Part shown: piece after piece, positions 10,438 through 23,898 of the stretch | Layout: every line of letters starts with the position of its first letter | How positions within the stretch are numbered: the stretch's first letter is position 1 | DNA from: an uncultured cyanobacterium | GTDB lineage: Bacteria > Cyanobacteriota > Cyanobacteriia > CAKZMO01 | Direction: 5' to 3' | Assembly (NCBI GenBank): GCA_963719515.1 | Contig: CAVRCJ010000021.1 | Location: 1-25,878 of the forward strand | Length of the DNA stretch: 25,878 nucleotides | Program-made: the position numbers and the translations under genes | The notes under the pieces: model-generated | Told to the model about the DNA's origin: nothing | The model's input: the letters and a program-made list of their open reading frames with translations, nothing else | The model's database searches: none

Positions 10438-10697
10438 GAATTCTCTGGGGGTGGTAGTCAGCACCAGCGGGCATCACACCAATGTCAATACATCAGCGAA
10501 AAGGGCTGGTCGGCAAGATGTGCCTTTGAAACGGTAGTTCTGACGATGCGACCCTAAAGGCGTATAGACGTAGGAATCAACAGCTTTGTTCCCTTGCCTT
10601 CACGGTCGACTCTATTGCACCCAGACGATGCTTTATGGTAACGGGTCTACAGCAGCAGACGCACTGCGTGACATCACACCCTGAGGTTGATCCGACG

Positions 10698-12602
10698 CTA
10701 ACAGGCCGTCACGCTAGCGGCAGGGGCAAGAATACTAAGCACTTGCTCTACCGGGACGGGCGGGCTGAACAGATAGCCCTGCATGAGATGACAGCCTAGC
10801 GATCGCAAAATATCTGCCTGAGCCTGGGTTTCCACGCCCTCGGCTACCACCTTCAGGTTTAAGCCTTTAGATAGCGCAACGATTGCCGCAACGATGGCCC
10901 GATCTGGGGAGTTTTGCTCAAGATCTATCAGTAGAGAGCGATCGATCTTGAGCTTGTGGAGCGGCAGCTGCTTGAGCCGCGCCAAGGAGGAGTAGCCCGT
11001 GCCAAAATCGTCTAGGCTAATGCTTACCCCCGCATCAGTCAGATCTAGAATGCTGTGCTGGCCTATTTTGAGCTGGCTGATGGCGGTTGTTTCAGTCATC
11101 TCTAGCTCTAGGAAATTTGGGTCATAGTTCACAGACCGCAATGTGCTGCGAATTAGGTCCGCTAGCTCTGGCTGCTGGAGCTGCCGGGGTGAGACGTTGA
11201 CTGCAAGAGTGATGTCAGAGAAACCGGCGGCGTGCCACCGCTGGGCCTGACGAATACCCTCTTGAAGAACCCACTCCCCTAGCGGAAAAATCAGATCCCC
11301 GGTTTCAGCCAGTTCAAGAAACGCGGCGGGAGAGAGCAGGCCCAAGCGCGGATGCTGCCAGCGCACTAGCGCCTCCATAGCAACGACAGTTTGACTTTGG
11401 CAATCGACCTGGGGCTGAAAGTATAGCCTCAGGTCATAGTTGTCGATGGCGTGACGCAGCTCTTGCTCTAGGCCTAGGCCGTCTACTCTGAGGTTGGCAG
11501 TGGCCTTGCCGCGAATGGAGTAGGTGTTGCGACCCTGCCGCTTGGCCTGGTAGAGCGCCTCGTCCGCGCAGTGCAGCGCGGAGCGGCTGTCGTGCATACT
11601 GGCTGTGCAGAGCGTTACGCCGACGCTTCCACTGATGTGCAGCTTGTAGTTTTCGACATAAAAGGGCTGTCTCAGCTGAGATAGTATTTGCTCACAGAGG
11701 GTTTCGACCTCACGAACTGAGCTTGAATAGTTCAAAATCAGGGCAAATTCGTCCCCCCCCCACCGGCTCAGCGTATCCTCAGCGCGAAGGCAGCGGTTTA
11801 TTCTTTGAGCGGCGCACTTGAGCAACTCGTCGCCCACAACGTGACCGTACGTGTCGTTGATCTGCTTGAATCGATCGAGGTCTAGCAGCACAACCGCAGT
11901 CTTCAAGCGCTCCGTAGGGTGGCGGAGGCGATCGCTGAGGCGTTGGTCAAAGACCTCTCGATTAGGAAGCTCGGTCAACCCGTCATAGAGGGCTCGGCGG
12001 CGCATCTGTCGTTCCATCTGCTTTTGCTGGGTCACATCTCGGATTGACCAGAGAAGCGCGACGCTGGTTTTGTGCTGAAGCAACGCGCGGCTGATTGAGA
12101 GAAAGACGGCGGCCTCAAAGGGCGCTTTGTTGCGAGGAGAGAGCGCTATGTTCCATTCGTGAGGCTCCAATTTGGCGAGGGGATCAGAGATATTGAGCTG
12201 CGCTAACCGGGTGAAGAGGGTGATGCGCGACGGCGCTGGAACAAACAGGGCTAGCGGTTTCCCGATAAGATAGTCTGGGTGAACGTTTAGCATTGAGGCA
12301 ATCGTCCGGTTGGCAAACAAAACCTGCCCCACCGAATCTGTGATCAGATATCCCCCCGGCAGGAGCTTAAATAGGGTTTGATGATGATGGTTTTCAGCAC
12401 ATAAAGTCTGGTTTGAGCGCCGTAGCTCCTGGTTTTGATGCTGCAATTCCTCGCTCAAACTCTCTAGCTGATCCAGCGAGTCGTGAAGGCGATTGAGAGT
12501 GTCAGAGAGCTGTGGCGACTGGAGTAAGTGGGCCGTATTCCCCTCCTGAAGCCGCTGTAGCTGCTCCTGAATGGCGATGATGAGCGAAGAAGGCGCTTCC
12601 AT
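10698..12602 (-). CDS. Coiled coil-PAS-GGDEF-EAL diguanylate cyclase/phosphodiesterase
   Basis: YDGLTELPNR, LDLDRFKQINDTYGH, RAED I-site plus RWGGDEF, MEALVRW, ELEMTE, LDDFGTGYSSL, KIDRS, AEGVET and QGY. Confidence 0.95.
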   Translation of the reverse strand: MEAPSSLIIAIQEQLQRLQEGNTAHLLQSPQLSDTLNRLHDSLDQLESLSEELQHQNQELRRSNQTLCAENHHHQTLFKLLPGGYLITDSVGQVLFANRTIASMLNVHPDYLIGKPLALFVPAPSRITLFTRLAQLNISDPLAKLEPHEWNIALSPRNKAPFEAAVFLSISRALLQHKTSVALLWSIRDVTQQKQMERQMRRRALYDGLTELPNREVFDQRLSDRLRHPTERLKTAVVLLDLDRFKQINDTYGHVVGDELLKCAAQRINRCLRAEDTLSRWGGDEFALILNYSSSVREVETLCEQILSQLRQPFYVENYKLHISGSVGVTLCTASMHDSRSALHCADEALYQAKRQGRNTYSIRGKATANLRVDGLGLEQELRHAIDNYDLRLYFQPQVDCQSQTVVAMEALVRWQHPRLGLLSPAAFLELAETGDLIFPLGEWVLQEGIRQAQRWHAAGFSDITLAVNVSPRQLQQPELADLIRSTLRSVNYDPNFLELEMTETTAISQLKIGQHSILDLTDAGVSISLDDFGTGYSSLARLKQLPLHKLKIDRSLLIDLEQNSPDRAIVAAIVALSKGLNLKVVAEGVETQAQADILRSLGCHLMQGYLFSPPVPVEQVLSILAPAASVTAC

Positions 12603-12638
12603 ATGGCGTCAAGAAACAGGGAAACAGCTGATGCAGCG

Positions 12639-12691
12639 AGAGGCTTCTAGCGCTGTCAGTTTCGCTGAAATGGCGCTAGAAGCGAGCCTCT
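12639..12691 (-). other. Long imperfect hairpin in the leader of the PAS-GGDEF-EAL gene
   Basis: gcttctagcgc (12643-12653) pairs perfectly with gcgctagaagc (12673-12683). There is an inner tcag/ctga stem and an outer agagg/cctct stem. Confidence 0.5.
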
Positions 12692-12711
12692 GTCTATGAG
12701 CTTCTGGCAAT

Positions 12712-12758
12712 AGTAATATGATTGAATATGATTAAGGCACTGCTTTAATCATATTACT
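12712..12758. promoter_or_regulatory. AT-rich palindromic candidate protein-binding site with extra tandem half-site
   Basis: AATATGATTAA (12725-12735), N9, TTAATCATATT (12745-12755). An extra AGTAATATGATT at 12712-12723 is the exact inverse of AATCATATTACT at 12747-12758. Confidence 0.55.
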
Positions 12759-12862
12759 TCAGCGGTTGAGAGCAGGCTTGATATGGACATCACGACAACA
12801 AGTTCACGGTAGCTTACGATTCGCGCGGTAGGCCGTGGGGACTGATACCGTATCTTTACCGA

Positions 12863-15800
12863 TCATTCGCCCCCAGCGGCCTCCCTCGCCCCCGCTCCGG
12901 TCAAGTCGACTATCTTCAGCAAAATTAGCGGCTGGCCCATCTGAGTCATTTTGCGAGCGCTCAGCTGCATCTGCCGCTGTCCGATGGCCTCAAAGGTGTG
13001 GTCTATGAAAAAGTTCGTTATCTCAGTATCCTTCGCCAGTAGATCGACGAGCCGCGATCGCAGTTCGGAGATATTCCACTGACCATTACCTAGGCTAAAA
13101 ATGGAGCTCCCTTTGATGCTGCTGGGAGACACCTGAAACATATCGTAAAAGTGTCGGGTGGCGACCACCACTCGTAGCTCTTCGTCTAGCACTACCAAAG
13201 ACTCCTGTACCGTTTGAATAATGGCGTCGGCGTAGGTTTGTGCGGCTTCGAGCTGAGCGGCGTTGCGCTTAAAGGCATCAATGGCGAACACGACGACAAC
13301 AGCGCCATCAATGCGGTTGTCTAGGGTACGGTAGGGACGAATTCGCAGGTCGTACCAGCATCCATTTTTGTTCTGAACTTCCTGACTGCTCTGATTTAGA
13401 GTGCGAATTACCGTCAAAATTTGCGACTCCAAGTCCTCGACGAGCAGGTTGTGGCGAATGTCGTTCAGGGGCCGTCCCACGTCCGTTGGAATGAGGTTAA
13501 ACAGGTCAGCCGCCGTTGGGGTAAAGCGGCGGATACGCAGGCCGTTTTCCTCAACCATTAAAATGGGAATGTTTGTGCTGCCCAATAGATTTTGAAGATC
13601 ATTGCTGATGCAGGTGGTCTCGATATTGCGCTGATAAAGCTCCTCATTGATAGTGCTCAACTCCTCGTTGGTGGCCTGGATTTCTTCTTTCGCCGTTTGC
13701 AGCTCTTCGTTGGTGCTCTGCAGCTCTTCATTACTCGACAAAATCTCTTCGTTGGCGGCCCTCAGGTCTTGATTGGTGCCTTCTTGCTCCTCAATGATTG
13801 ACTGCAGATGGCTTTTACTCTGGTCTAATTCCTGCTGTAGTCGCTGAATAATTTGCTCGGCGGTGGAAGGAATAGCGGTTAAATCAAGCCTGTCGACGCT
13901 GACGCTGTCGCTCACCTGGGGCTTACCGTCCTCTTCAAAAATAACCATGAAGACCTCGTCAGCGGTGCTGGACCCAAGGGAAACGACGGTGAGTTTGGTT
14001 TGCTGCTTCACCCGACGGTCGCCAGCGGCCTCTCTCAGATAGATGTTGGCCTTGCTGATGGATTTACCGGTCTCCTGAGCCTGATAGATAGCGCTGCGCA
14101 GGGCTATCTGCAGTTCGGGCCGCGCAAGCCTTAACAGATTGAGGCTCGCGCGGCCCGGTGCCGGGTCTAAGTAAGCGCCCGTCTGTCCCAAAAACTGCCT
14201 CACCTCAAGCTGCTGATCGATGATGACGGCGGCGGCATCGTAATGCTTCAGCAGCGCCAGCTCAATGGCTCTATTCAGCGTAGTGCCGGCTTGGGAGAGT
14301 TCGGTCGATGGATCCAGAGTGGGCATAAAACCGGCTTGCGGGGAGAGAGACTCAACTAAGTTGAGGCCATACCCGGCGCTGGAGGCCTGTTTAACATAGA
14401 CCTTGTGCTTCGAATTCACCAGTCTAAAGAGGTCAAACGAGCTTCCCACCGCTTCAGATGCCCCCAGCATCAAAAAGCGGGCAGGTTTGAGACCGTAGTG
14501 AATCGTCGACAATATTTTCGCTTGCGCCGCTGGTTTGAGATAGATCAGCACGTTGCGGCAGGTCACGAGGTCGAGACGAGAGAAAGGGGGATCTCCCAAC
14601 AAATTTTGTTGAGCAAAAATGCACAGTTCGCGCACGGCTTTATTGATTTGGTATCCCCTCTCCACCGGCACAAAGTAGCGCTGTAGCCGTTCGGGGGAGA
14701 CCCCCGTTAGCCTATCGGCAAGATAAATGCCCTGGCGCGCTGCATCAATTGCCGCCGCACTGAGATCGGTGGCAAAAATCTGAATGGAAGGTCTGGCCAG
14801 ATGCTCAGGCAAAAACTCCAGCAAGCAGATTGCCAGAGAATAGGCTTCTTCTCCCGTAGAGCATCCCGCGACCCAAATGCGGATGGGACGCAGTGGACGG
14901 CTCTCTAAAAGCTCGGGAAAGACCTCCTGCTTTAAAGCTTCGAATGCAGACGAATCGCGGAAAAAGCTTGTTACAGTGATCAAAACCTCTTGGTACAGCT
15001 TTTCAACCTCTGCAGCGTTTTTCTTTAAATAGTCGACATAGTCTTCCACCCGGTCTAGCCGCTTCAAAGACATCCGCCTTAAGATGCGCCGCTTTAGCGT
15101 CGTCTCCTTATAGAGGCTAAAGTCGACCCCCGTCGCTGTCCGCAGCAGGGCAAAAATGGCGGCTATGCCTGCGCTTCCGGTGTCGTCGAGGCCGTCTGAG
15201 TCGGGGCTGTACCGCTCCGGATAACGGCCAATGCGGACGATCTCTTGGGCGATCTCTGCTGGGGTACCTGTAAAGTCGACCTGTCCGGTGGCGATCGCGG
15301 CGTTGGGCATGGTTTGTACCTGGGCTGAGATGTCCGACTGGGCAAACGTCCTGCCGCCAGCGGCTTTAATGTCCTCTAGTCCCTGGGTGCCATCGTCGTT
15401 CCCCCCCGACAGGACGACGGCGATCGCCTGATCCTGGCAGTCGTTAGCCAGCGACTCAAAAAAAATGTCAATACTTTTGTGGGGCCGCGGTGATCCCCCG
15501 TTTCGGGGCGCTAGGCAAAGCCGCCCGTCGGCGATGGTCATACTAACGTTGGGCGGAATTACATAGACCCGGTTTGGCTCTACCGCCATTCCCTCCTCAG
15601 CCTCGTGAACCGGCATCTGAGTATCGTGGGACATAATCGATCTGAGCCGGCTCTCTTGGTCGGGAGCCAGGTGAAGCACCAACACAAAGGCCATGCCGGT
15701 GTCAGCGGGCAAATGGTTGAGCAGCTCTGTAAACGCCGCTAGACCACCCGCTGATGCCCCCACCCCGACGACGGGAAAGTCTGGGCCTCTGTCTTGCAGC

Positions 15801-15913
15801 CTGTCGGGAGCTGGAAATGGGTCAGGCGCTTGAGTATTCACCTCTGAACCTGCAGCGGGAGACGGCGCTGTCCTCCGCTGAGAGTCGGGGCGATCAGGCT
15901 GGTCAGGGGGCAT
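12863..15913 (-). CDS. cheBR: CheB methylesterase-CheR methyltransferase fusion with coiled coil and PAS domains, no kinase/output domain
   Basis: CheB S-H-D triad (GASAGG, LHLAP, SGGNDDG). CheR motifs VTSFFRD, IWVAGCSTGEEAYS, FATDL and CRNVLIY. NEELQSTNEELQTAKEE heptads, a PAS_10-like IRRFTP segment and a terminal PAS. Confidence 0.93.
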   Translation of the reverse strand: MPPDQPDRPDSQRRTAPSPAAGSEVNTQAPDPFPAPDRLQDRGPDFPVVGVGASAGGLAAFTELLNHLPADTGMAFVLVLHLAPDQESRLRSIMSHDTQMPVHEAEEGMAVEPNRVYVIPPNVSMTIADGRLCLAPRNGGSPRPHKSIDIFFESLANDCQDQAIAVVLSGGNDDGTQGLEDIKAAGGRTFAQSDISAQVQTMPNAAIATGQVDFTGTPAEIAQEIVRIGRYPERYSPDSDGLDDTGSAGIAAIFALLRTATGVDFSLYKETTLKRRILRRMSLKRLDRVEDYVDYLKKNAAEVEKLYQEVLITVTSFFRDSSAFEALKQEVFPELLESRPLRPIRIWVAGCSTGEEAYSLAICLLEFLPEHLARPSIQIFATDLSAAAIDAARQGIYLADRLTGVSPERLQRYFVPVERGYQINKAVRELCIFAQQNLLGDPPFSRLDLVTCRNVLIYLKPAAQAKILSTIHYGLKPARFLMLGASEAVGSSFDLFRLVNSKHKVYVKQASSAGYGLNLVESLSPQAGFMPTLDPSTELSQAGTTLNRAIELALLKHYDAAAVIIDQQLEVRQFLGQTGAYLDPAPGRASLNLLRLARPELQIALRSAIYQAQETGKSISKANIYLREAAGDRRVKQQTKLTVVSLGSSTADEVFMVIFEEDGKPQVSDSVSVDRLDLTAIPSTAEQIIQRLQQELDQSKSHLQSIIEEQEGTNQDLRAANEEILSSNEELQSTNEELQTAKEEIQATNEELSTINEELYQRNIETTCISNDLQNLLGSTNIPILMVEENGLRIRRFTPTAADLFNLIPTDVGRPLNDIRHNLLVEDLESQILTVIRTLNQSSQEVQNKNGCWYDLRIRPYRTLDNRIDGAVVVVFAIDAFKRNAAQLEAAQTYADAIIQTVQESLVVLDEELRVVVATRHFYDMFQVSPSSIKGSSIFSLGNGQWNISELRSRLVDLLAKDTEITNFFIDHTFEAIGQRQMQLSARKMTQMGQPLILLKIVDLTGAGAREAAGGE

Positions 15914-16180
15914 AAGCGCAGGTGTAGAGTCCTGCTTCTTAATTTACTGTAGATCTGGGCTTAAACCTGCTGCTCTGGCGTGGGTGGAGACACCGCATGC
16001 CGCGCCCCGAAAAATTCATGCTGCTCTTCCCCCATCAGCTCCAATTCTTTCAGCAATCTCACTGAAATTACCGCCCATTTCCGGAGCAACACCCGTAGAT
16101 TCCTTGGCGATCGCGCTTAAAAACTACCAATACTATTGATTGAATAGGCTCGCCCTGTTCTGACGTCAGCAGAGTACTCG

Positions 16181-19100
16181 ATGGCTAAGGTTCTCTTGAA
16201 TGATGACAATACCGACAAAGAGGCGGCTTTACAGCAGTTGGCGGAGAAAGATCGGCAAATTCGGCTGCTCCGGGCCCAGCTCAACCAAGAAATTGAGCGC
16301 TGCCGCCGCATCGAGCAAAACTGCGTCCAGGACATTCAGGACCACACGGAAGAGCTAGAAGCCGAAATTGTGCAGCGCCGACGTGTTGAAAAGCAGCTGC
16401 ACCACCAGGTTACCAATCTGGAAATTATTTTTAGAGCCTTTCCCGACGCCATCATCTTTTTAGATAGCAACTGCTGCATCCGCAAGGTTAGCTCAGCGCT
16501 GACTAAACTATTTGGCTATCGGCCTGAAGAAATCTTGGGTAAGTCGATAGACGTCCTCTATCACAACCTCGACGACGGCTTAATTCTTGAGGATCAGCAC
16601 TTTAGCCTCTTTGCTGAAGAAACCTTCGAGCCCTACAATATCTACTACCAGCGCCAGGACCAATCTACCTTCATCGGCGAAACCATCGGCACCATTGTTA
16701 AAGACTCTTTGGGGCATGTGATCGGTTTTTTGGGCATTATTCGCGATGTTACCCAGCGGCAGCAGCTGATGCAGGAGCGGGACAGGGCCCAGGCTGAGCT
16801 AGCCTGTCGGGAAGCGCAGCTCAGACAGTTTGTGAAGCATATGCCTGCGGCGATCGCCATGTTTGACACGCAGATGCGCCATTTGTTTCATAGCGATCGC
16901 TGGCTTAAAGATCACGATCTCTGCGGCACAGAAATCACTGGAAAGCATCATTACGACGTCTTTCCCGCCATTGCCGACTGCTGGAAAGAACGCCATCGAC
17001 AGTGCCTTGAGGGTCGGGTGCTGGAGTGCGAAGAGGAGGTATTTTTTCAGGCCGATGGCGCGCGGGAGTGGCTCAAATGGGAGCTGCGGCCCTGGTACCA
17101 GGCTTCTGGAGAAATCGGGGGCGTCCTCGCGCTCACAGAGACCGTTACCGCCCGCAAAAACGCTCGGCTAAAGCTAGAGGAAAGTGAGGCTCGCTTTCGG
17201 GCCTTCATGAACAACAATCTGGCGATCGCCTTTATGAAGGACGATACCGGTCGCTATCTCTACGTCAACAAGCCCTTTGAAAAATTTGCGGGCCGGGCGG
17301 CGACTGAGCTAGTGGGCAAGACGGGACACGATTGGCTTCCGCCTGCGATCGCGCGTCAGCTGAGCAAGCACGACTCCCAGGTGCTGACCAGCGGGCAAGC
17401 GAGCCAGCGGCTAGAGATTATGCCGACCGCCGACGGAACCTTGAGCTACTGGATGGTGTGTAAGTTTCCCTGCTCCAACGCCCGAGGCGCGGCGCTAGGG
17501 GGCGTCGCCTTCAATATCACTGAGCAAAAGCAAATCGAGCAAGAGCTATTTCGCGAAAAGGAGCTCGCTCAAGTCACCCTGCAGTCCATTGGCGATGCCG
17601 TGATTACCACCGACGCCCAGGGAAAGATCACCTATCTCAACTCCGCCGCCGAGCGCCTGACGGCTTGGTCCCTCAGGGAAGCCAGCGGGCTCCCCCTATC
17701 CCACGTCTTTCACGTTGTCGATGAAGTCACACGGGTGCTGGCGCAAAATCCGGTGGAGCGCGTCCTCAGCACTGGCGAGGTGGCTGGCTTTTCCAACAAC
17801 GTCGCCCTGATTAGCCGCAGCGGCACCGAATACAGCATCGTCGACTCAGCAGCGCCCATTAAAGACCGGGAGGGCGACGCCGTAGGCGTAGTGCTTGTCT
17901 TTCACGATGTGACAGAGTCTCGGGCGCTGTCGCAACAGCTGGTGTGGCAGGCGTCTCACGATACGTTGACCAGCTTAAAGAACCGCCGCTACTTTGAGCT
18001 AGAACTCAACTCGGTGCTAGAGCAGACCCAGCGGCAGCACGTTCTGTGCTACCTCGACCTCGACCAGTTCAAGATTGTCAACGATACGGGGGGCCATGCC
18101 GCTGGGGACGAGCTGCTGCGGCAGATCGGCGCTATGCTGACCCAAAATACCCGCTCAGCCGACGTTGTGGCCCGGCTGGGGGGGGATGAGTTTGGCGTTT
18201 TGCTGAAGCGATGCTCACTAGAAAACGCGCGGCGCGTCATGGATCTGGTTCGGCAGATGGTCAAAGACTTTCGCTTCGTCTGGGAGGACAACACCTTCAG
18301 CGTTGGCGTCAGCATCGGGATGGTCGAGATCAACGATACGCTGCAAAACTTGGCCGATGCCCTAGGCGCTGCCGATGCCGCCTGCTACGCCGCCAAAGAG
18401 CGGGGACGCAACCGACTCTATCTCTACCGCGCTGACGATCAAGAGCTGACCCGACAGCGCAAAGAACAGCAGTGGATCTCCCGCATCCAGCAGGCCCTGG
18501 ACCAAAATCAGTTCCAGCTCTACCGCCAGCCCATTGCGCCAACAGCGCTGGCCTGCGGCGATGTAACCACCAAGGCCGTGCACCATTACGAAATTTTGCT
18601 GCGGCTCGTCAGCGCCGAGGGCAAGATCATTCCACCGATGGCGTTTATTCCGGCGGCAGAGCGCTACGGCCTCATGCCCGCCATCGATCGCTGGGTTGTG
18701 GAGGCGTTTTTCGACCAAATCGATGCCCTGCAAGCCTTGGCCGCCTGTAATACCGGCAGCGAGACGGCAACGGGGTTCTATACGCTCAACCTATCGGGAG
18801 CCAGCATCAATGACGAGCAGTTTTTGCCGTTCTTAACGGACAAAATCACCCGCAGCGCCCTCTCCCCCAAATTGCTGTGTTTTGAAATTACCGAAACCGT
18901 CGCCGTTTCTAACCTCAATCGGGCGAGGGCATTTATCCAGGAAATTAAGGCGCTGGGCTGCTCTTTTGCCCTCGACGACTTTGGCAGCGGCATGTCGTCG
19001 TTTGGCTATTTAAAGCATTTGGCCGTCAACTATATCAAAATTGACGGCTCCTTTGTGCGCAACCTGCTGGAAGACAATATCAGCACCTCCATCGTAGAGG

Positions 19101-19297
19101 CGATTACCAAGATCGCTCACTCCATGGGGCTCGAAGCGATCGCCGAGCGCGTAGAAAATATCGAGACCCAGCGGAAGCTGCTAGAGCTAAACGTAGACTA
19201 CGTTCAGGGCTACGGCATCGGCAGACCGGCTCCGCTGCCTACTGCCTCTGGGCATAGGGCGTTGGCGCCCTGTGAATCCGCCATCGGCCAGCTGTGA
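16181..19297 (+). CDS. Multi-PAS GGDEF-EAL diguanylate cyclase/phosphodiesterase
   Basis: About four PAS domains, TLQSIGDAVITTD, HDTLTSLKNR, RSAD I-site plus RLGGDEF, YEILLRL, FEITET, LDDFGSGMSSF, IKIDGSFV, AERVE and QGY. Confidence 0.95.
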   Translation: MAKVLLNDDNTDKEAALQQLAEKDRQIRLLRAQLNQEIERCRRIEQNCVQDIQDHTEELEAEIVQRRRVEKQLHHQVTNLEIIFRAFPDAIIFLDSNCCIRKVSSALTKLFGYRPEEILGKSIDVLYHNLDDGLILEDQHFSLFAEETFEPYNIYYQRQDQSTFIGETIGTIVKDSLGHVIGFLGIIRDVTQRQQLMQERDRAQAELACREAQLRQFVKHMPAAIAMFDTQMRHLFHSDRWLKDHDLCGTEITGKHHYDVFPAIADCWKERHRQCLEGRVLECEEEVFFQADGAREWLKWELRPWYQASGEIGGVLALTETVTARKNARLKLEESEARFRAFMNNNLAIAFMKDDTGRYLYVNKPFEKFAGRAATELVGKTGHDWLPPAIARQLSKHDSQVLTSGQASQRLEIMPTADGTLSYWMVCKFPCSNARGAALGGVAFNITEQKQIEQELFREKELAQVTLQSIGDAVITTDAQGKITYLNSAAERLTAWSLREASGLPLSHVFHVVDEVTRVLAQNPVERVLSTGEVAGFSNNVALISRSGTEYSIVDSAAPIKDREGDAVGVVLVFHDVTESRALSQQLVWQASHDTLTSLKNRRYFELELNSVLEQTQRQHVLCYLDLDQFKIVNDTGGHAAGDELLRQIGAMLTQNTRSADVVARLGGDEFGVLLKRCSLENARRVMDLVRQMVKDFRFVWEDNTFSVGVSIGMVEINDTLQNLADALGAADAACYAAKERGRNRLYLYRADDQELTRQRKEQQWISRIQQALDQNQFQLYRQPIAPTALACGDVTTKAVHHYEILLRLVSAEGKIIPPMAFIPAAERYGLMPAIDRWVVEAFFDQIDALQALAACNTGSETATGFYTLNLSGASINDEQFLPFLTDKITRSALSPKLLCFEITETVAVSNLNRARAFIQEIKALGCSFALDDFGSGMSSFGYLKHLAVNYIKIDGSFVRNLLEDNISTSIVEAITKIAHSMGLEAIAERVENIETQRKLLELNVDYVQGYGIGRPAPLPTASGHRALAPCESAIGQL

Positions 19298-19355
19298 GAC
19301 CCTACGCCGGCTGTAGATGACTTTAGGCGATCGCTTTCGATTAGGGATTGGTTGA

Positions 19356-19393
19356 CTGTCGTCCTGTCGCCGCCCTGTCGCCGCCCTGTCGCC
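19356..19393. repeat. Short tandem repeat, 11-bp unit CCTGTCGCCGC, about 2.8 copies plus a partial unit
   Basis: ctgtcgt cctgtcgccgc cctgtcgccgc cctgtcgcc, read directly from the sequence. Confidence 0.7.
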
Positions 19394-19568
19394 CTTTGAC
19401 TGCGCCTGTTGCCAGAGACTAAGGACCGCGAACGCCAGCGGTGGGTTTGCTCACTTGGGAAAAAAGTTTCACCAAACGCTTTGACGGCCAGAATTCCGGG
19501 GCTGAGAGAGCTTGCGCTGCTACCGATGGTCTGATCTGAGCGGACAGAGGACTAGAAGCACCTGTACT

Positions 19569-19955
19569 ATGGATTTTGATGCTTTTACTTCTAACCTGAT
19601 GGCAATCCTAACCGCACCTACAACGCCCCCAGCCACCACCACAGCCGACGAAAACGTACAGACCCCTGATAATATTAATGAGGCCATTCAAACGCTGCAA
19701 AACCTGGCAAACATTCAGCTAAAGTTGCAGAAAGAGCGCAGCGCCATTGAGAATCTAGAGCTGATTCACAATATGCTTGACGGCGAACTGCTCTCCGAAG
19801 ACGAACTCATCGTCGTTAAGCGATCGCTAAAGGGATTGAGCAAATACGCTGAGCTTCACGCCGCTTACAAAGCCGCTCTGGAGGCTGCACAGCAGGCGCG
19901 GGATCTGATCGACCAAATTATTGGGTATTCTGTGTCAGGTAAATCCATCTCATAA
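19569..19955 (+). CDS. Hypothetical soluble helical protein (128 aa)
   Basis: ATG at 19569 (MDFDAF..) is preferred over TTG at 19512. A Thr/Pro linker is followed by amphipathic coiled-coil-like helices. Contains a HIP1 site. Confidence 0.7.
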   Translation: MDFDAFTSNLMAILTAPTTPPATTTADENVQTPDNINEAIQTLQNLANIQLKLQKERSAIENLELIHNMLDGELLSEDELIVVKRSLKGLSKYAELHAAYKAALEAAQQARDLIDQIIGYSVSGKSIS

Positions 19956-20142
19956 AAGTGCACCCCAAAGAGCAGATAGTGCGCTTGGTTAATCCCCTAA
20001 CCTGTAGGCTATCTTGGTCTAACTGGGGTGCTTTGTTCTCAAGGGGTTCACAACAGAATAACTTTACAGGCCTCTATAGGCTAGGTTGTCTAAGAAGATT
20101 TGTCTTTGTCTGTCTACCCGCGTTAGCAAAGTACGTCGAGCC

Positions 20143-21114
20143 ATGACCAAGCTATTAAAACAACTTAGGAAGAACCGCGCCTTTCGGCTGTGCTTAACGG
20201 GAGTGAAGCTCTTCACCCTGTTCCTCTTCGGCATCTGCCTGGTCAGCTTTCTCTCCGCCCTGACCCAGCTCTTCAATATCAGAGATCTATACGTCAAGAA
20301 ACTCATGTTTTGGGGCATGAGTCTCATCTTGGCCGGATTCGCGGTGCTCTGCATCGTCATCCTTGCGATCGCCCTGTACGAGTATATGAAGACCGCAAAG
20401 CAGCGCCGAAAGCAGGACAAAAGCGAGGCTCAAGTCGAAGCCTTTGAGCAGGCCAAAGCTCAAAAGGAAGCCCACGGGGACATAGAGACCCATTATCCAG
20501 GCTACTTGGGGGCGCAAGATACCCTGCATGTGAGCGACATTGCGGGCATTGGCGATATCTATCAGCAGACCTTCGTTGATACCTACACCCGCGTCGCCAT
20601 CATCAAGATCTACGACAGTAAAACAGCGCTACTCGCGGCAGACTTGCTCAACGACCGAGTTCTCCCCTTCTTTCGGGGGCAGGGCGTGCGACTGCTCAAA
20701 ATACTCACGGACTGGGGTCCGGAATACTGCGGTAGTCCTGAGCAGCACGAGTACCAAAGATACTTAGCCATTGAGGCGATCGACCATGCTCAGACCAAGG
20801 TTCCCTCGCCGCCGCAGGGAAATGGGGTCTGCGAGCGCTTCCACCAGGAAATGGTTGCAGAGTTTTATGAAGCGGTCTGTCGCCAAACGAGGTATCAGAG
20901 CCTAAATGAGCTTCAGCGCGGCGCCGATCGTTGGGTAGAGTACTACAACTGGGAGCGATCGCACTCGGGGCGATACTGCTACGGCAAAACGCCAATGCAG
21001 ACGTTTGTAGACAGTCTGCCGTTGGCCAAAGGTGAGTCTCCGGTCGCTCAGACCTCAGACGAGGTGAGCCAGTCTCGAATGCCGTCTTCTAGCGGTTCTT
21101 TTGGCGTCAAGTAA
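20143..21114 (+). CDS. Two-TM membrane anchor fused to IS481-family (ISSod13-like) DDE integrase core; HTH absent
   Basis: TM1 about 20209-20274 and TM2 about 20302-20379. Then EAQVEAFEQAKAQKEAHGDIETHYPGYLGAQD, IYQQTFVDTY, AADLLNDRVLPFF, ILTD, NGVCERFH and YYNWERSHSGRYCYGKTPMQTF, all typical of IS481 transposases. D/D/E codons at 20518, 20710 and 20833. Confidence 0.85.
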   Translation: MTKLLKQLRKNRAFRLCLTGVKLFTLFLFGICLVSFLSALTQLFNIRDLYVKKLMFWGMSLILAGFAVLCIVILAIALYEYMKTAKQRRKQDKSEAQVEAFEQAKAQKEAHGDIETHYPGYLGAQDTLHVSDIAGIGDIYQQTFVDTYTRVAIIKIYDSKTALLAADLLNDRVLPFFRGQGVRLLKILTDWGPEYCGSPEQHEYQRYLAIEAIDHAQTKVPSPPQGNGVCERFHQEMVAEFYEAVCRQTRYQSLNELQRGADRWVEYYNWERSHSGRYCYGKTPMQTFVDSLPLAKGESPVAQTSDEVSQSRMPSSSGSFGVK

Positions 21115-21130
21115 GCCTGTAATGCAGGCT
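21114..21130. terminator. Possible small terminator hairpin between convergent genes
   Basis: agcctg-taatg-caggct immediately after the TAA. No U-tract. Confidence 0.25.
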
Positions 21131-21159
21131 GTGGCCCTGCGACCGGTAATCCAATCAGG

Positions 21160-21939
21160 CTAAAGGCCAGTCCGAGACTGCTGGTACGCCAGGTAAACGG
21201 CCTCTAGAAATTGGTCGGCGCCGTGCTCCCACGGAATTGATGCCATGCTAATGGTGGCTTTCATCTGTTCTGCAAGCTGCGCACTGAACCTGGAGCGGGC
21301 GGCTGCTCCCATATGCGATCGCCGCTCTAAATATTCCTTAACGATGGCAAAGTCGTCCGGCAGCAGCTGGGAGATATTGGCCTCCGTAAGCAGCTGCTGT
21401 GATAGCGCTTGGGCAGAGTCGGACAGCCTGAGGCGTTTGTCCGTGGAGTCCGCCTGAACCACCAGCGTTCCGGCGAGCCAGTCTCCCAGACGCTTCTCCT
21501 GCTTGCTGAACACAATAAATAGAAACCCGATAAACAAAATGTCGTCCACGGGGCGCAGTAGGGCTCGCAGCGTCGCCTGAAATAGCCCTACTGACTGACC
21601 GTTATCGCGAATGACGCGAATGTTGACTCGGCGCTTACCCGGCGTCTGCCCCTGCTTCAGGGTCTCAAAGCCCACAAAATAGCCCACGTACAGCCCGTAA
21701 ATCACTAAAGCCATCACCGCGACCACCCACTGAGGGCCAATCACAGTGCTCCAAGCCGCGCCGTCGAGTTCGAGGGCGTAAAGCAAAAATAGCGTCAGCG
21801 CTGCTAGAGACAGCAGCGACAGATTGAGAATAATGTAGTCTATCAGCAGCGCAAACGCCCGGTTGCCCACCCCCGCTAAAGTCAGCTCTAGCTCGACGCT
21901 TTCTGGCGTTTGAATGCGAACAGTGTTGAAAAGTTGCAT
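21160..21939 (-). CDS. RDD family protein
   Basis: IQTPESVELELTLAGVGNRAFALLID, FETLKQGQTPGKR, RVIRDNG, LRALLRPVD and KRLGDWLAGTLVV. Confidence 0.93.
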   Translation of the reverse strand: MQLFNTVRIQTPESVELELTLAGVGNRAFALLIDYIILNLSLLSLAALTLFLLYALELDGAAWSTVIGPQWVVAVMALVIYGLYVGYFVGFETLKQGQTPGKRRVNIRVIRDNGQSVGLFQATLRALLRPVDDILFIGFLFIVFSKQEKRLGDWLAGTLVVQADSTDKRLRLSDSAQALSQQLLTEANISQLLPDDFAIVKEYLERRSHMGAAARSRFSAQLAEQMKATISMASIPWEHGADQFLEAVYLAYQQSRTGL

Positions 21940-22906: not shown

Positions 22907-23898
22907 ATGAATATTCGACGCTGGATTGCTCGTCGAGAAGCGAGCTGGCAACAGTTAAATATACTGCTCTCCCAGGTCGAGAAGCGGGGCTTAAAGTCTC
23001 TCTCCTCTGAGCAGATTCAGCAGCTCGCCAGCCTGTACCGCTCTGCGTCGGCGGACTTGGCCCGCGCCAAAACCCATCCGGTGGGCGATGCCATCACAGG
23101 CGAACTGCAGCGGCTCGTCTCCCGCAGCTACGGCCTAATCTACCAGGGGTCTCGCCGTCAAGACTGGCGGGCGATCGCCCAGTTTTACCGCACAGAGCTG
23201 CCGCAGACGATTCAGCAGTCGCGGGGCTACATTGCCCTAGCCACCCTGCTGTTTTTGGGGGGGCGGGCATCGGCTGGTGGTTCTCCTGGCGAGACCCCGA
23301 ATTCTTGGCGCTGGTGGTGCCCGCCGAGCTGATCAGGATGGTGCGGGATGAAGGGCAGCTGTGGATGGGGTCGATTGTGGGGGTAGAGCCCCTGGCCTCC
23401 AGCGCGATCGCCATCAACAACCTCACCGTATCCCTCTACGCCATCATCGGCGGGGTGACCATGTTCCTGCAAGAGATTCCGGCCATCACGCCGCCGGGGG
23501 CGTTTACGGTCTATTTGATGGCCTACAACGGGCTGTCCATCGGCGCGATTTCGGCGCTGGTGAGCCAGAATAACCTGGCCTATCCCTTCTGGGCCTTTGT
23601 GCTGCCCCATGGCTCCCTAGAGCTGCCCGCTATTTTCTTTGCGGGGGGCGCAGGGCTGCTGCTCGCCAGGGCGATTTTGTTTCCCGGTCGCTACTCCCGC
23701 AGAGACGCCCTCAGGGTCTATGGCACTCAGGCGGCGAAGCTGGTCTATGGCATCGCCCCCATGCTGCTAATCTCTGGGCTGATTGAGGGCTTCTTTTCCC
23801 CCAACCCGGCTATCCCCAACCTCTTGAAGTACGTCGTCGGCGTGGCGCTGTTTTTGCTGCTGGTGGCCTACTGCAGCCGCAGGCCCGCTCACAGCTGA
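22907..23898 (+). CDS. spoIIM: Stage II sporulation protein M (SpoIIM/DUF95) family membrane protein, with one frameshift at G-run 23257-23263
   Basis: MNIRRWIARREASWQQL and LYRSASADLARA in the first part. Adding one G to the G7 run gives LFLGGAGIGWWFSWRDPEFLALV, joining ORF 23305..23898 (INNL, LPHGSLELPAI, IEGFFSP). Confidence 0.88.

Follow-up and report, generated by a model that had tools for sequence, protein, structure and literature searches.

The window, by which we mean the whole 25,878-nucleotide stretch of DNA analysed, belongs to the genome of an uncultured cyanobacterium (G000, 5.28 Mb). It carries an open reading frame in which a two-helix membrane hairpin is joined in frame to the DDE core of an IS481 transposase, without an internal stop. 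The fusion ORF, its parts and its neighbours are as follows:

19599..19955 (+): gene for a 118-aa helical protein that matches no known family; retained as a neighbour at locus A (synteny)
19997..20022 (+): place where relatives have the SigG-type motif; the -10 part is present and the -35 part unmatched (motif comparison)
20121..20128 (+): conserved 8-base upstream motif, 22-23 nt ahead of the start codon (4 of 7 loci)
20143..21114 (+): fusion ORF, 323 aa (P0001), single copy in the genome
20143..20187 (+): basic N-terminal helix, residues 1-15, predicted cytoplasmic (charge counts; helix in a low-confidence model)
20188..20268 (+): TM1, residues about 16-42 (hydropathy; invariant alignment run)
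20305..20382 (+): TM2, residues about 55-80 (hydropathy 2.96)
20389..20421 (+): basic stretch behind TM2, residues 83-93, where the host-derived part ends (alignment, charge counts)
20422..21033 (+): IS481-derived linker helix and RNase H-fold DDE core, residues 94-297 (profiles, core model, Foldseek)
20518..20520 (+): D126, first catalytic residue (retained in 5/5 fused proteins; alignment with MMTV integrase)
20710..20712 (+): D190, second catalytic residue (same evidence)
20833..20835 (+): E231, third catalytic residue (same evidence)
21034..21114 (+): C-terminal tail and stop, poorly conserved (19-31% identity between fusions; pLDDT about 32)
21160..21939 (-): convergent RDD-family gene, downstream synteny marker (Pfam, synteny)

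The first-pass annotation had described one uninterrupted ORF with two hydrophobic helices between basic clusters, and this was borne out by the ORF itself, by Kyte-Doolittle 19-residue means of 2.26 (residues 16-34) and 2.96 (residues 61-79) and by the charges, with 7 basic and 0 acidic residues before the TM segments and 6 basic and 2 acidic behind them. The match of P0001 to IS481 transposases starts at residue 94-95 (20422-20425) and runs on at 61-68% identity, and D126, D190 and E231 are aligned with the D-D-E of MMTV integrase, which bears out the claimed join near 20422 to a core with the complete triad. In P0001, about 135 residues at the N-terminus of the nearest transposase (P0006) are replaced, and the HTH Pfam domains of the full-length parents are absent from P0001 and P0003-P0005, in agreement with the earlier view that the N-terminal HTH region had been exchanged. 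Pfam rve_3 was detected on P0001 at E 1.3e-9, and NCBIfam IS481 (NF033577) scored 152.5 bits against a cut-off of 224, falling short as the N-terminal part is absent. The AlphaFold model of the entire protein was of low quality (pLDDT 60, with parents misaligned), so a model of the core only was used (pLDDT 86.6), and its Foldseek matches were retroviral integrases and IstA (best E 9e-10). Profiles, alignment and Foldseek thus place the core among DDE transposases with an RNase H fold. The pocket residues Q125, T189, Q225, N227 and H234 were retained in 5/5 fusions, and as modelled the core retains an integrase-type fold with an intact metal pocket.

Two compositional signs put forward earlier were correct as observations and lost their weight as special signs. 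HIP1 sites do lie at 20365 and 20955, but the window holds 40 of them in 25.9 kb, so that two per kb is the host average. The TM part is rich in C/G-ending codons here (GC3 0.76-0.79), but this is not special, as it overlaps the values of orthologs and flanking genes (0.52-0.73 and 0.56-0.79, respectively). Support over the junction was supplied by contigs from three of the four sequencing runs (one study, possibly of the source sample), which bridge it without a difference. With these contigs and an identical junction in independent genomes, an assembly chimera is hardly credible, even though one probable homopolymer frameshift lies elsewhere in the window.

TM1 is the most conserved part of the membrane domain in the alignment, and 5-9 basic residues precede it in 7/7 loci. 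This charge pattern, present in all 7 loci, backs the proposed positive-inside topology with the core in the cytoplasm, and the fusion protein would accordingly be seated in the membrane with both termini cytoplasmic. The hairpin domain had no Pfam or NCBIfam family above cut-off and no usable match in the Atlas search, and a profile search of 1.84 billion representatives returned four proteins, all members of the hairpin family. In 12 genomes drawn from four further genera of this taxonomic family, the N-terminal part had no match at E 0.001. As matches were confined to one genus in the genome, protein and profile searches, the hairpin family appears, as far as these data reach, to be an orphan at genus level. 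A sister genus encodes a 78-aa two-TM protein without an assigned family (L022 1489-1725; L023 1471-1707); it weakly resembles the hairpin (E 0.003-0.009; hhalign probability 63.5), and its standing as a distant relative is doubtful.

Matches were found in five of the 41 genomes searched (G000, G002, G003, G004 and G029). The full fusion was encoded in G000, G002 and G003, the hairpin alone in G004 and at a second place in G003, and an IS fragment in G029. Two metagenome loci, one with a fused copy (L015) and the other with the hairpin alone (L016), probably come from one organism. The same in-frame junction therefore recurs in four lineages (G000, G002, G003 and L015), with core identities of 58-66%, and the fusion is not unique to this assembly, a possibility the first-pass annotation had allowed for. 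It was also present in strain variants (P0003, P0190, P0004 and P0191). Two protein searches, which covered lengths of 169-590 aa and scored 8000 candidates each, gave at least four full-coverage matches (P0002-P0005) and otherwise ordinary transposases. An Atlas search with P0005 gave solely ordinary IS481 or rve clusters aligned across the core. The fusion was not found in G001 (80% complete) or G004 (93% complete), nor among 77 viral-contig loci, where the match began only from residue 74 and mostly from 94.

These genes occupy two chromosomal sites. At locus A the order is a PAS-GGDEF-EAL gene, the 118-aa helical gene and the hairpin gene; the last carries the core in G000 and G002, while in G003, G004 and L016 it is short. 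Locus B lies downstream of DUF2157 and GDYXXLXY genes and upstream of a small protein and serS; it is occupied by the fusion in G003 and L015 and empty in G000 and G002, and in G004 the contig end is reached. The fusion is thus fixed at orthologous loci in several species. Stand-alone hairpin genes are known from G004, L016, P0123 and P0124, the first two at the same locus as the fusion, so the join involved a pre-existing host gene to which transposase sequence was added in frame. Such a stand-alone orphan gene is, from the sequences, the likely ancestor of the membrane part. On one point the earlier interpretation needs correcting: the N-terminus goes back to a gene that already existed on its own and was captured nearly whole, long ago.

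Several minor features accompany the two sites. The 118-aa helical protein (19599-19955) had no Pfam family above cut-off, and its homologs were present in 16 of 21 genomes, often two per genome. A DJ-1/PfpI gene is absent from window positions 19298-19598 and present at that place in G002, G003 and L016; no match to it was found in G000 at E below 1e-30. An 11-bp direct repeat lies at 19356-19398. The empty locus B of G000 holds an unrelated element of ~397 bp (L074, G000:C15 about 20884-21280), which presumably is a non-autonomous IS200/IS605-type element and which has dozens of 98-100% identical copies across G000.

To place the fusion among its relatives, 10 of 116 homologs were dropped (<340 aa or without the anchor motif), leaving 106 parents, of which the trees drew on subsets of 39 and 18; the phylogenetic comparison covers four independent lineages. 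The fused cores formed one clade (98/95) among 18 IS481s, and the group nearest to it comprised cyanobacterial IS481s including Leptothoe, Adonisia and Leptolyngbya members. Terminal or stem branches of the fused cores were 0.38-0.61 against a median of 0.15. In single-gene host trees, G000, G002 and G003 were separated with modest support from G004 and the L015/L016 organism, with a SerS identity of 86-87% across this split. The locus-B cores of G003 and L015 were sisters (100/96) across the same split. The hairpin tree was divided (99/98) into a short clade (G004, L016, P0123 and P0124) and a fused clade. The locus-A copy of G003, which has no core, fell within the fused clade, and its tail still resembles the IS helix, which together indicate that its core was lost secondarily. 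The alternative that different IS481s were captured independently was rejected on account of the same junction, the monophyly and a shared Q217, found in 5/5 fusions and 0/106 parent transposases.

The simplest reading of these sequences is a single fusion before the host split, followed by duplication and reciprocal loss. In this reading, an orphan two-helix membrane gene acquired 200 C-terminal residues from a cyanobacterial IS481 transposase, in a single event that predates the deepest split sampled within the genus. Comparison with the parents shows that the HTH region and the left end of the element were lost in the join, presumably through a deletion. The fused gene would then have been duplicated to the second locus, with lineages tending toward one fused copy. 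The birth and partial loss of this gene can be traced, as its ancestor, its donor subfamily, its duplicate and a re-truncated copy are all visible.

The occupation of two different loci and the intact DDE triad could also be expected of a still mobile element, or of an IS481 that recently inserted itself in a neighbouring gene. The fusion is nevertheless single-copy in G000, though another element is resolved dozens of times in the G000 assembly, and with no other IS481 core in that assembly a recent hit by a multi-copy IS481, as had been contemplated, does not apply. Neither the HTH nor a flanking inverted-repeat pair with IS481-type ends was found around the fusion, and the locus-B copies are orthologous across two host subclades. 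A right-end motif built from L057, L058 and L005 scored at shuffle level in three of four fusions (P 0.85-0.98) and weakly at locus B of G003 (P 0.016); an apparent right-end remnant at 21098-21127 was rejected because shuffles score as well. Target-site duplications of IS481 are mostly 6 bp, according to the accessible part of PMC10045372. A sample of 400 genomes from the phylum yielded no full-length parent transposase, though some could be concealed in repeats that were not assembled. In place of several copies or variable insertion sites, we found one copy in G000 and two fixed orthologous loci. A mobile or recently inserted element is therefore very improbable.

The selection pressure on the core was estimated with our own GY94 codon-model code. 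Over 194 codons in four lineages, omega of the core was 0.062 (about 0.03-0.09; p 1.7e-71 against 1), that of the hairpin 0.19 and that of four flanking genes 0.07-0.14, all rough values as synonymous sites are near saturation. Four-fold-site divergence was 0.63-0.72 in the core, level with or a little higher than the 0.46-0.70 of the flanking genes. The dN/dS of about 0.06 is thus far from the value of about 1 that would have spoken against domestication. By branch, omega was 0.16 in G000 (p 0.03 against 1) and 0.04-0.06 in the other three lineages. The GC3 of the core tracks each host. Columns invariant in all four fusions made up 72/123 of the parent-conserved and 10/56 of the parent-variable ones. 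Retention of the D, D and E residues is in itself weak evidence, as 59% of the parent-conserved columns are invariant anyway and the chance that three such residues stay so is about 0.2. In neutral simulations, the frame was left open in 3-7% of 400 runs per lineage. Two strain variants in the window ORF, seen in one shallow contig, were both synonymous, and in P0002 (99% identical, in another assembly) the frame is shifted beyond about residue 266, through a possible sequencing error or true decay. By these comparisons the core is kept intact under purifying selection, weaker in G000.

The same data bear on the alternative that only the hairpin is under selection, the core being a jobless tail that stays folded and in frame since misfolding harms, and that is now being lost. 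The stand-alone hairpins, the P0002 frameshift, the weaker constraint in G000 and the empty locus B of G000 and G002 agree with this, as does the re-truncation at locus A of G003, which signifies that the core can be lost. Yet a tail of no use could be shed free of cost by a premature stop codon, and four lineages have kept the core to near synonymous saturation. The core is also more constrained than the hairpin, and G003, which lost it at locus A, kept it at locus B, as would be expected if selection maintains one fused copy. We consider such a tolerated tail distinctly unlikely. With four lineages, a bridged junction, a low dN/dS and a single copy, the proposal of a candidate domesticated transposase was supported, and the fusion agrees with the sequence-based criteria that section 7 of PMC8700633 gives for domestication. 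It is very probably a domesticated host-transposase gene.

What this gene has given up became apparent from comparison with 42 distinct intact IS481 cores, the remainder of the 77 viral loci after removal of 20 without an intact full-length ORF and 15 duplicates. Conserved basic positions were retained at 12-14 of 23 in the five fusions against 18-23 of 23 in these controls. Among near-invariant columns, which are not independent of one another, 10/22 basic ones were lost in at least three of the four fusions, against 1/20 acidic and 10/108 non-basic ones. Positions 134, 191, 217, 232, 235, 247 and 248 are basic in 41-42 of the 42 controls and in at most one of the four fusions, while positions 150, 155, 160, 186, 219, 272 and 277 are basic in all four lineages and in 42/42 controls. 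Acidic positions were also eroded in three fusions (14-15 of 20 retained). As the controls, which are interrelated, lie nearer to the parent consensus (similarity 0.67-0.81) than the fusions (0.58-0.66), the control match is best for G000 (0.66), whose retained non-basic conserved positions (94/108) are level with those of the least similar controls. The lost basic residues are, from what is known of integrases, presumably DNA contacts. Since the basic residues that transposases keep have been shed, the fusion core would not move DNA any more, and we infer that transposition has been lost.

The exapted functions suggested at first, a nuclease, a sensor or an oligomerisation module, came out with unequal standing, and the DNA-processing nuclease lost ground as the basic residues were lost selectively. 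A domesticated protein might still be enzymatic, as a membrane-tethered RNase H-fold metallo-nuclease or phosphotransferase that would act, close to the membrane, on nucleotides or on nucleic acid that is short or single-stranded; such an enzyme would need the DDE pocket and could dispense with the grip on transposon ends. The triad and its pocket neighbours, retained in 5/5 fusions, and the seven basic positions kept throughout would suit it, and MMTV integrase carries P and Q at two of the changed positions, so that catalysis could survive those two changes. Partial processing and disintegration activity is retained by a foamy-virus integrase truncated at its N-terminus, as given in the available portion of PMC9728412, although an integrase core alone does not recognise donor DNA (same portion). 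Against an enzyme stand the seven positions at which the basic residue was given up, the replacement of Gly by Glu after D190-x in the locus-B copies, the one-residue insertion in the catalytic loop ahead of E231 in G000 and the want of a PADLOC match. On balance we judge a domesticated enzyme unlikely. Its particular form, a DDE core acting as a membrane-tethered metalloenzyme on nucleic acid or nucleotides at the membrane under envelope-stress sigma control, is rather unlikely; if true, it would reveal a domestication route that trades the DNA-binding domain for a membrane anchor and turns the catalytic pocket to a new substrate.

Given domestication, a non-nucleolytic job is somewhat favoured, and its setting is suggested by the upstream DNA. 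A GGAAC-N17/18-GTC motif was found 147-207 nt upstream of four of the five fusion-clade loci (G002 A, G003 A, G003 B and L015) and of neither of the two short-clade loci (G004 A and L016), against a background of 0.67% of 1933 upstream regions. It was first noticed by eye in the two locus-B copies, and the two locus-A matches form an independent test. In G000 the motif is absent; the lack of the -35 part in the window copy is in line with its weaker constraint. Motifs of the GGAAC -35 / GTC -10 type have been predicted for SigG (accessible part of PMC8155712), whose anti-sigma factor has been linked to envelope stress (accessible part of PMC11345509). Of 23 SigG-type intergenic sites listed in G000, one lies ahead of an ECF sigma gene. 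The 8-base motif (20121-20128) occurs at both chromosomal sites, with a background of 0.1% of 1933 upstream regions. A sigma-70 scan gave 1 site against 1.1 expected.

The core may therewith cluster or regulate the membrane hairpin within an ECF-sigma (SigG) envelope-stress response. Stated as a role, the core would be a non-nucleolytic cytoplasmic scaffold that binds metal or associates with itself, carried by a membrane protein of the envelope-stress response; among the readings considered this candidate is the most likely, and we hold it to be an even call. Dimer interfaces between catalytic core domains (CCD-CCD) are known in integrases, according to the part of PMC9728412 available; a homodimer prediction for residues 1-297 scored 0.00 and gave no evidence either way.

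In anti-phage systems, a hairpin anchor combined with an effector domain is a known two-TM-plus-domain design. The fusion shares the hairpin anchor and cytoplasmic domain with such effectors, a resemblance remarked on earlier. Unlike them, it sits at stable loci among signalling and membrane genes with no defence island, and PADLOC assigned 0 families to three family members, so the likeness to an anti-phage effector was not sustained.

Domesticated DDE transposases are well known from eukaryotes, with a thin record in bacteria, and vertebrate host-transposase fusions such as SETMAR and the KRAB fusions mostly exploit the DNA-binding domain of the transposase. The present gene resembles the vertebrate fusions (PMC8700633) in its in-frame join, fixation, purifying selection and long branches, and differs in being bacterial and unspliced, in keeping the catalytic and discarding the DNA-binding domain, and in having a membrane anchor as its host part. 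With TnpB-derived RNA-guided transcription factors it shares the recruitment of an IS-encoded protein as a host gene; those factors derive from an accessory nuclease and bind nucleic acid, whereas the fusion derives from a DDE transposase and its DNA grip is apparently lost (compared with the accessible part of PMC10705468). From the IS481 transposases of the P0126 cluster (Leptothoe, Adonisia turfae and Leptolyngbya sp.), it has kept a 61-68% identical core, the linker helix, D-D-E and fold. Unlike them, it has two TM helices in place of about 135 HTH-bearing N-terminal residues, stands single-copy at fixed loci without element ends and on long branches, and has lost 9-11 of 23 conserved basic residues. 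The literature searched, which covered few subscription papers, yielded no bacterial protein that derives from a DDE transposase and is anchored in a membrane. The fusion reverses the usual pattern, in that the DNA-binding part was dropped and the catalytic fold kept on a membrane, a switch marked by the loss of seven named residues. It also signifies that the annotation 'integrase core domain' does not always mean mobile-element debris, with a reach of one little-studied cyanobacterial genus.

Apart from these, the window held a few further features. Its PAS-GGDEF-EAL protein (16181-19297, +) is short by about 130 N-terminal residues compared with the 1160-aa ortholog of G003, and in the region 10698-19297 two GGDEF-EAL genes surround a gene for a 1016-aa protein that by eye is CheB/CheR-fusion-like. 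A SigG-type motif lies at about 10566-10592 (-), 129 nt upstream of a sulfotransferase gene. A membrane-protein gene at 22907-23898 (+), a single 335-aa ORF in G003, is split here over two frames at a seven-G run near 23256-23262, either by a homopolymer error or by a real frameshift.
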